Assembly: GCA_017499595.2 (NCBI GenBank)
Contig: CM039007.1
Span: 620,001-684,000, forward strand
From: Psilocybe cubensis
Taxonomy: Eukaryota
Length of the DNA stretch: 64,000 nucleotides
Direction of reading: 5' to 3'
Shown here: positions 36,591-36,793 of the stretch, one piece after another
Layout of the letters: every line of letters begins with the position of its first letter
Position numbering within the stretch: the stretch's first letter is position 1
Made by a program: the position numbers and the translations under genes
The notes under the pieces: generated by a model
What the model was told of the DNA's origin: nothing
Database searches by the model: none
The model's input: only the letters and a program-made list of their open reading frames with translations

Positions 36591-36793
36591 CTAGTAGCAA
36601 AGTGCTAGACGACGAGCTTCAATGTCTTCAGCATCACAGTCCACAATTTCCGCTGCGCAAAATAATTTTTAATTTCTGTGGGGAATATTGTAGACGGAAA
36701 CATACTATGACCTGCCACAGGTGCAGAGTTTGCCATCATGGCGAATAACAAGGCAATGGATGCAAGTTTGCAAAAAATACGAACTGGATACAT
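36591..36793 (-). CDS. 49-aa secreted peptide, candidate RiPP precursor: MYPVRIFCKLASIALLFAMMANSAPVAGHTEIVDCDAEDIEARRLALCY
   Basis: Exon 1 is 36793-36706, a 53-nt GTATGT...GCAG intron spans 36705-36653, and exon 2 is 36652-36591. The product has a signal peptide ending ANS-APV, an acidic spacer, a dibasic RR site and C-terminal LALCY. It lies between DUF3328 no. 3 and the But2-like gene. Confidence 0.7.

Follow-up and report, generated by a model that had tools for sequence, protein, structure and literature searches.

A spliced gene of 49 codons in Psilocybe cubensis, set among three UstYa (DUF3328) genes, is a real and conserved gene of Agaricomycetes with a product of 45-49 aa, as judged from the comparison of divergent loci, and its peptide is most likely a ribosomal substrate of the clustered UstYa enzymes. 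We give about half of our confidence to this reading, in which the product is a single-copy propeptide that would be cut at a dibasic site and modified by UstYa enzymes, with the chemistry falling on its two cysteines or on the aliphatic LAL residues and not on tyrosine. The gene lies in a stretch of 64,000 nucleotides of contig CM039007.1 (the whole analyzed stretch is hereafter called the window), in the following arrangement:

36793-36706, minus strand: exon 1 of the small gene; 88 nt, begins with ATG and closes on the first base of a codon (phase 1)
36705-36653, minus strand: intron of the small gene; 53 nt, GTATGT...GCGCAG, phase 1
36652-36591, minus strand: exon 2 of the small gene; 62 nt including TAG; encodes the acidic block V-x-C-D-A-x-D, RR, LALC and a terminal Tyr
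35560-36370, minus strand: UstYa gene C; PF11807 E 2e-15; ORF 35560-36264; 220 nt downstream of the small gene
34796-35481, plus strand: UstYa gene B; PF11807 E 4.9e-16; main exon ORF 34963-35481; two HxxHC motifs
33491-33982, minus strand: UstYa gene A, main exon; PF11807 E 2.4e-19; two HxxHC motifs

The small gene and its conservation

Read on the minus strand, the spliced frame of the small gene comprises 150 nt and encodes 49 aa ending in ...RR-LALCY-stop. This bears out the initial annotation, which had proposed a 49-aa precursor with this ending and a 53-nt GTATGT...CAG intron, and had noted that the ORF track misreads the gene; the unspliced ORF at this site, 62 aa long (36605-36793), indeed runs into the intron. 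From its N-terminus, the peptide consists of basic and then hydrophobic residues, a short Pro/Gly stretch, the acidic block with its Cys, RR and LALCY, and the product of exon 1 resembles a signal peptide in its basic residues, hydrophobic core and stretch of small residues. The unspliced 62-aa ORF, of which only exon 1 is in frame, returned no candidate in a word-based search for homologues.

A bare spliced ORF of such size is not unusual in the window. Under loose rules (ATG, GTRNGT donor, YAG acceptor 45-78 nt downstream, product of 40-60 aa), 24 two-exon ORFs were found in the window versus 6-20 in 10 first-order Markov simulations. When a basic residue and a hydrophobic core were added to the rules, one of the 24 remained, with its ATG at 36793, versus 0-2 per simulation, and with a tail Cys and a dibasic site required as well, this ORF was the sole one left in the window and none appeared in the 10 simulations. 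Because the signal-like, dibasic and tail-Cys criteria were picked post hoc, once the ORF was known, the argument for the small gene must rest on conservation.

Scanning metagenome contigs with an alignment of relatives of UstYa C yielded 47 UstYa-centred fungal loci. An exon-2 homologue closing in a stop codon was present in 16 of them (L004-L018 and L041), and in all 16 it is preceded by a first exon that starts with ATG and encodes a hydrophobic core, the two being joined across a GT...AG intron that is 52-56 nt long, in phase 1 and placed at the same codon; once spliced, the peptides of these metagenome loci are 45 aa long. Across the three lineages represented by the window, L041 and L004-L018, introns and flanking sequences showed a background identity of 0.51-0.62, while a comparison of exon 2 from the window with that from L041 gave 14 identical residues out of 19, of which 11 were encoded by a different codon. 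The retention of the peptide by different codons, with introns and flanks at background, indicates that purifying selection is acting on the protein.

The family also extends beyond these loci. A search of 1.84 billion protein representatives with an exon-2 profile produced three matches at E ≤ 0.001:

KJA22686.1, Hypholoma sublateritium: hypothetical protein, 49 aa, spliced model, signal-like start
KAL7283429.1, Trametes sanguinea: hypothetical protein, 49 aa, spliced model, signal-like start
Unnamed metagenome protein: 39 aa

The Hypholoma and Trametes homologues show that the peptide family spans Agaricales and Polyporales. The initial annotation had suggested a profile search for short secreted ORFs ending in Cys-Tyr; homologues were recovered in these two species, but with the tail LALC-x. 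A relaxed Cys...Cys-stop pattern applied to 14 loci lacking the small gene gave three unrelated rows, and an all-against-all tblastx comparison of the other UstYa loci for further precursors produced noise only, in the form of near-identical contigs and repeats. The peptide family was not described in the literature that we searched; the supplementary tables of the surveys of KEPs (Kex2-processed repeat proteins) lay outside the scope of this search and could list related genes.

The possibility that there is no gene here, but a chance ORF or the first exon of the downstream UstYa gene, draws on the abundance of loose two-exon ORFs in the window and in the simulations. We consider it very improbable in view of the conserved structure with its synonymous turnover, the independently annotated homologues and the complete model that UstYa C has of its own. 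That model has three exons (36370-36291, 36232-36108 and 36053-35560) separated by introns of 58 and 54 nt, and encodes 232 aa, among them the Y-T-Y motif that full-length homologues carry. With its own ATG at 36370 and its own membrane segment, UstYa C rules out exon 1 of the small gene as its first exon, and this assignment is also contradicted by the small gene's own stop codon, which is kept in every homologue.

Linkage to UstYa genes and other neighbours

The initial annotation had placed the small gene in a DUF3328 neighbourhood, and three PF11807 genes do adjoin it within 3.1 kb, all scoring above the curated cut-off. UstYa A has copies of 62-64% identity in L041 and L038. UstYa B has a probable first exon from about 34796, with an ATG and a hydrophobic, probably membrane-spanning segment, and the hydrophobic N-terminal segment of UstYa C presumably serves as a membrane anchor. 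In UstYa C and its homologues, the first motif reads HxxRC instead of HxxHC, and the second site retains only x-H-C; these proteins form a divergent subfamily, possibly with a different metal site. The best named relatives of UstYa C come from Hypholoma, Crepidotus and Panaeolus, with 59-63% identity, which places the window in the Agaricales.

Separately, an 8-residue match to the end of exon 1 in the window, S-x-P-V-x-G-H-T, was observed in a more distant group of loci, some 130 nt ahead of the UstYa match:

L021, 1891-1914: S-x-P-V-x-G-H-T match
L025, 802-825: S-x-P-V-x-G-H-T match
L027, 1598-1621: S-x-P-V-x-G-H-T match
L028, 52-75: S-x-P-V-x-G-H-T match

With E values of about 8-12, these matches may reflect chance or a shared N-terminal element.

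In the window, the gene order is D, peptide, C, then B on the opposite strand, then A, where D denotes a gene directly upstream of the small gene. In L004-L017 the order is S33 hydrolase, D, A, peptide, C, and in L041 it is A, peptide, S33 hydrolase, another UstYa. The peptide gene therefore lies among UstYa genes in all three divergent lineages despite the differing gene order. The loci, of about 10 kb each, were selected for a UstYa gene alone, so co-occurrence was counted from the UstYa side. An unlinked gene should almost never fall within UstYa loci of about 10 kb, yet the peptide gene does so in two unrelated lineages (L004-L018 and L041), which argues for linkage. In Hypholoma, the records of the peptide and of the UstYa C homologue each name a contig of 363,560 bases, which suggests that they share one scaffold.

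This linkage does not appear to be strict. The nearest relatives of UstYa C, 62-64% identical to it, are those of L001-L003, where B and D adjoin as well; on these contigs of 3.4-6.2 kb the peptide gene was absent, both over 1.1-2.8 kb upstream of C (depending on the locus) and in the rest of each contig. These loci count against an obligatory linkage of the peptide gene to UstYa C. They also agree with another explanation, to which we assign a minor but substantial share of our confidence: the gene may encode an ordinary small secreted peptide that carries no modification apart from a disulfide joining its two invariant cysteines, whether or not Kex2 cuts within the loop. Such a peptide would have a signal, defence or effector-like role, and its UstYa neighbours would represent inherited synteny and not its enzymes. 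On the other hand, the peptide gene has stayed in UstYa clusters through rearrangements in three lineages in which the intergenic DNA is at background identity, a persistence that speaks against mere inheritance of position.

The other genes recognized around the cluster are as follows:

37410-38233, minus strand: gene D; two overlapping ORFs joined by a putative intron
38645-39027, plus strand: apparent remnant of an S33-type alpha/beta hydrolase (proline-iminopeptidase-like); C-terminal, last ~100 codons
40034-41325, plus strand: multi-pass membrane protein with no Pfam family; counterpart in L041 at 9494-10563, 58-77% identity
32958-33305, plus strand: ORF carrying the motif L-P-R-P-N-x-F-V-G-L-P and a hydrophobic, probably membrane-spanning segment; convergent to UstYa A
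20914-27333, minus strand, and 45542-48254, plus strand: FunK1-type fungal protein kinase ORFs (PF17667), three sets
48997-50097: ABC1 kinase-like gene

Gene D is syntenic in 19 of the 47 loci and accompanies UstYa genes (L001-L017, L033, L040 and L046). It resembles But2 by language-model features only (first match 0.96, with But2 on 33% of the cluster's members), and it had no match at E ≤ 10 in Pfam, the But2 C-terminal domain PF09792 included. Its AlphaFold model (pLDDT 62) shows a mostly beta C-terminal domain, within which four cysteines are invariant; a Foldseek search of this model against the PDB gave no hit at E ≤ 0.001, the best being 0.065 with a TM below 0.4.

The catalytic GxSxG part of the S33 hydrolase was not found in the window, and full-length copies occur in related clusters (L004-L013, L038, L039, L041 and L046). 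L041 carries two of them, at 3256-4384 and 7946-8947, and the copy directly after the peptide gene begins with a hydrophobic signal-like segment that the other lacks. The multi-pass membrane protein is also syntenic with the cluster in L004-L017, and the ORF with the L-P-R-P-N-x-F-V-G-L-P motif is retained in L041 (1144-1566, minus strand), L038 (4577-4906) and L004. The FunK1-type kinase ORFs bracket the UstYa region on either side.

Residues, processing and possible chemistry

The residues of the family were compared over 21 sequences, 11 of which are distinct. V-x-C-D-A-x-D, the second basic residue and L-A-L-C were invariant in all 11. The dibasic pair expected from the initial annotation was present in every distinct member, as RR in six and KR in five, and is separated from LALC by a linker of 0, 1, 4 or 7 residues. 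None of the 11 contains a repeat, the conserved block and the dibasic site each occurring once, in keeping with the single core without tandem repeats that had been proposed. The last residue was V in five, F in three, L in two and Y in one, and aside from this position no aromatic residue occurs in the LALC-x segment. Among the near relatives L004-L018, the reading frame closes with CTT, GTT or TTT before its stop, and C-D-A-E-D is followed by ATT, ATG or GTG (I/M/V); the remainder of exon 2 differs at only a few further sites, mostly by synonymous substitution. Variation at the final residue (V/F/L/Y) and directly behind C-D-A-E-D is what product-diversifying positions would show.

As for the N-terminus, hydrophobicity alone, a crude test of a signal peptide, gave a mean Kyte-Doolittle value over 11 residues of 2.46 for the window peptide, within a range of 2.46-2.74 that includes the members P0014 and P0015. 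The metagenome members, judged by eye, show the same hydrophobic pattern with a basic residue before the core. Several members (e.g., P0014 and L010) have X-Pro dipeptides ahead of the conserved block, which would suit trimming by a dipeptidyl-aminopeptidase. CaaX-type lipidation is ruled out by the sequence, as the Cys is second from the end and not fourth.

The terminal Tyr is found in the window sequence only, while both cysteines are fixed in the family. This bears directly on the initial annotation, which had proposed a Cys-Tyr or Tyr-aliphatic cross-link and had looked to a C-terminal Cys/Tyr conserved in orthologous loci: the Cys half of this expectation stands, and the Tyr half fails, with the required residue in 1 of 11 distinct members. 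A strictly dikaritin-like product, in which Kex2-released LALCY is cyclised through its tyrosine by DUF3328 enzymes (by a Tyr-aliphatic ether or a Cys-Tyr bond), would fit the window copy, which ends in Cys-Tyr after RR beside three UstYa genes. The presence of V, L or F in place of Tyr elsewhere and the lack of repeats make this reading quite improbable. Moreover, no tyrosinase, methyltransferase, P450 or transporter was recognized by Pfam among 25 distinct ORF translations of the window, a set from which small multi-exon genes may escape. A tyrosine cross-link is accordingly unlikely, and the chemistry of the peptide, insofar as its residues indicate, would differ from the tyrosine ether link of ustiloxin-type dikaritins.

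The alternative offered by the initial annotation, a longer C...C segment closed by a disulfide, fits the invariant residues better, since both cysteines are fixed and their spacing varies, with UstYa action on the peptide being a presumption. The same pattern favors the ordinary disulfide peptide introduced above: both cysteines are invariant while the length of the loop varies by 0-7 residues, and strong constraint covers the whole mature part, beyond a core. Invariance in both halves of the peptide would be unusual for a leader-plus-core arrangement and would fit a small disulfide-looped, folded peptide equally well. Disulfide formation requires no dedicated enzyme, which also favors that explanation. 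The same argument has been made for acalitide (PMC10840396). Against it, no function of its own is known for a peptide of 20-25 residues that has a single disulfide and an invariant acidic block.

Under the reading that we prefer, namely a substrate of the UstYa enzymes, the hydrophobic N-terminus would bring the peptide into the ER; the steps after entry into the secretory pathway are those that we infer. The two invariant cysteines would pair, or one of them would enter a cross-link. The invariant acidic block would serve as a recognition site for UstYa oxidases, membrane-bound and facing the lumen, which would act on the loop between the cysteines or on the C-terminal LALC-x segment, and a Kex2-type protease would then cleave behind the RR/KR pair. 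This would leave either a short, modified peptide of 5-12 residues from the C-terminus or a two-chain peptide joined by cysteines.

The cross-links documented for UstYa proteins involve aromatic side chains (PMC12186524), and the lack of an aromatic residue in the C-terminal segment of most family members counts against the peptide as a substrate of these enzymes. Nevertheless, the activities reported for UstYa proteins comprise ether bonds, hydroxylation, chlorination, desaturation and transacylation (PMC12048977; a title cited in PMC12186524), and this variety makes aliphatic or sulfur chemistry conceivable for the peptide. A single core has also been suggested for UstYa clusters without repeat precursors (PMC12048977). 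A complex prediction for residues 45-211 of the UstYa C homologue from Hypholoma and residues 20-49 of the peptide from that fungus scored 0.00, which we take as evidence neither way.

Alternatively, the peptide may be an accessory factor, for example an acidic two-cysteine metal carrier or a regulator of UstYa, with the true substrate encoded elsewhere. The invariant acidic block and Cys would resemble a metal-binding site, and a DUF3328 enzyme is reportedly copper-dependent, going by the title of a 2025 paper cited in PMC12186524. Under this explanation neither the conservation of the dibasic site nor the variability of the last residue would have a role, and we know of no precedent for an accessory peptide of UstYa enzymes; we consider it improbable.

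Taken furthest, the substrate reading would make the family a new ribosomal class of mushroom UstYa substrates, with an acidic-Cys recognition block and an LALC-x segment cross-linked or oxidised through Cys or aliphatic carbons, and with a thio-linked or two-chain product. We regard this extension as possible but tentative.

Significance and comparison with known peptide systems

UstYa/DUF3328 genes are numerous in mushroom genomes; in Pleurotus ostreatus, 16 have been counted, several of which are regulated during fruiting (PMC8893723). That the peptide is a substrate of such enzymes is plausible, and its gene thus provides a testable candidate. The occurrence of a conserved non-repeat gene in UstYa clusters yields a concrete pairing of a 49-codon gene with three oxidases and one partner. 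Among basidiomycete Kex2-repeat precursors, only 6.1% were reported near DUF3328 genes (PMC7329392), and the peptide family explains why repeat-based mining overlooks precursors of its kind. If the peptide is modified, UstYa chemistry would extend past aromatic cross-links and mushrooms would have a new class of peptides.

The closest comparison is with the dikaritins (ustiloxins, phomopsins, asperipin-2a and victorin), whose precursors are processed by Kex2 and modified by UstYa/DUF3328 proteins (PMC9769878, PMC12048977). Like them, the peptide combines a secretory-type N-terminus with an acidic stretch and a dibasic Kex2-type site, and its gene clusters with several UstYa genes. It differs in having a single motif instead of tandem repeats, with the core-like segment at the very C-terminus, and in its two invariant cysteines and non-conserved tyrosine. 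There may be a resemblance between the victorin core, GLKLAF, and the tail of L041 and P0014, G-L-A-L-C-F. With respect to the five-gene definition of a dikaritin cluster by Ding et al., as given in PMC12048977, the window contains multiple DUF3328 genes, but its scanned ORFs included neither a tyrosinase nor a methyltransferase, and the S33 remnant alone stood for the transporter/peptidase component. In addition, the dikaritins characterised according to PMC12048977 belong to Ascomycota, whereas the peptide family belongs to Basidiomycota. The peptide would therefore be dikaritin-like at most in outline, and it should not be classed as a dikaritin precursor.

The KEPs of Agaricomycetes resemble the family in their logic of a signal peptide followed by dibasic processing. 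The X-Pro before the conserved block recalls the Ste13-trimmed KEP peptides (PMC9769878), and similar trimming may apply here. In contrast to the KEPs, the peptide is a single unit and has no repeats flanked by Kex2 sites, so that published repeat-based searches (PMC7329392) would miss the family.

The cycloamanide/amatoxin (MSDIN) precursors of Agaricales are likewise short mushroom precursors with a single core. In amatoxins, moreover, a cysteine participates in the cross-link. MSDIN precursors are described as having no signal peptide, Pro-flanked cores and cleavage by a cytoplasmic prolyl oligopeptidase (PMC9769878). The peptide, by contrast, has a signal-like start and no Pro-flanked core.

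A further analogy is offered by the killer toxins K28 of yeast and KP6 of Ustilago, which consist of two Kex2-cut, disulfide-linked chains and comprise ~80-200 residues. In the peptide family, the dibasic site between the two cysteines would similarly yield two chains held together by a disulfide, here of roughly 12-19 and 5-12 residues.
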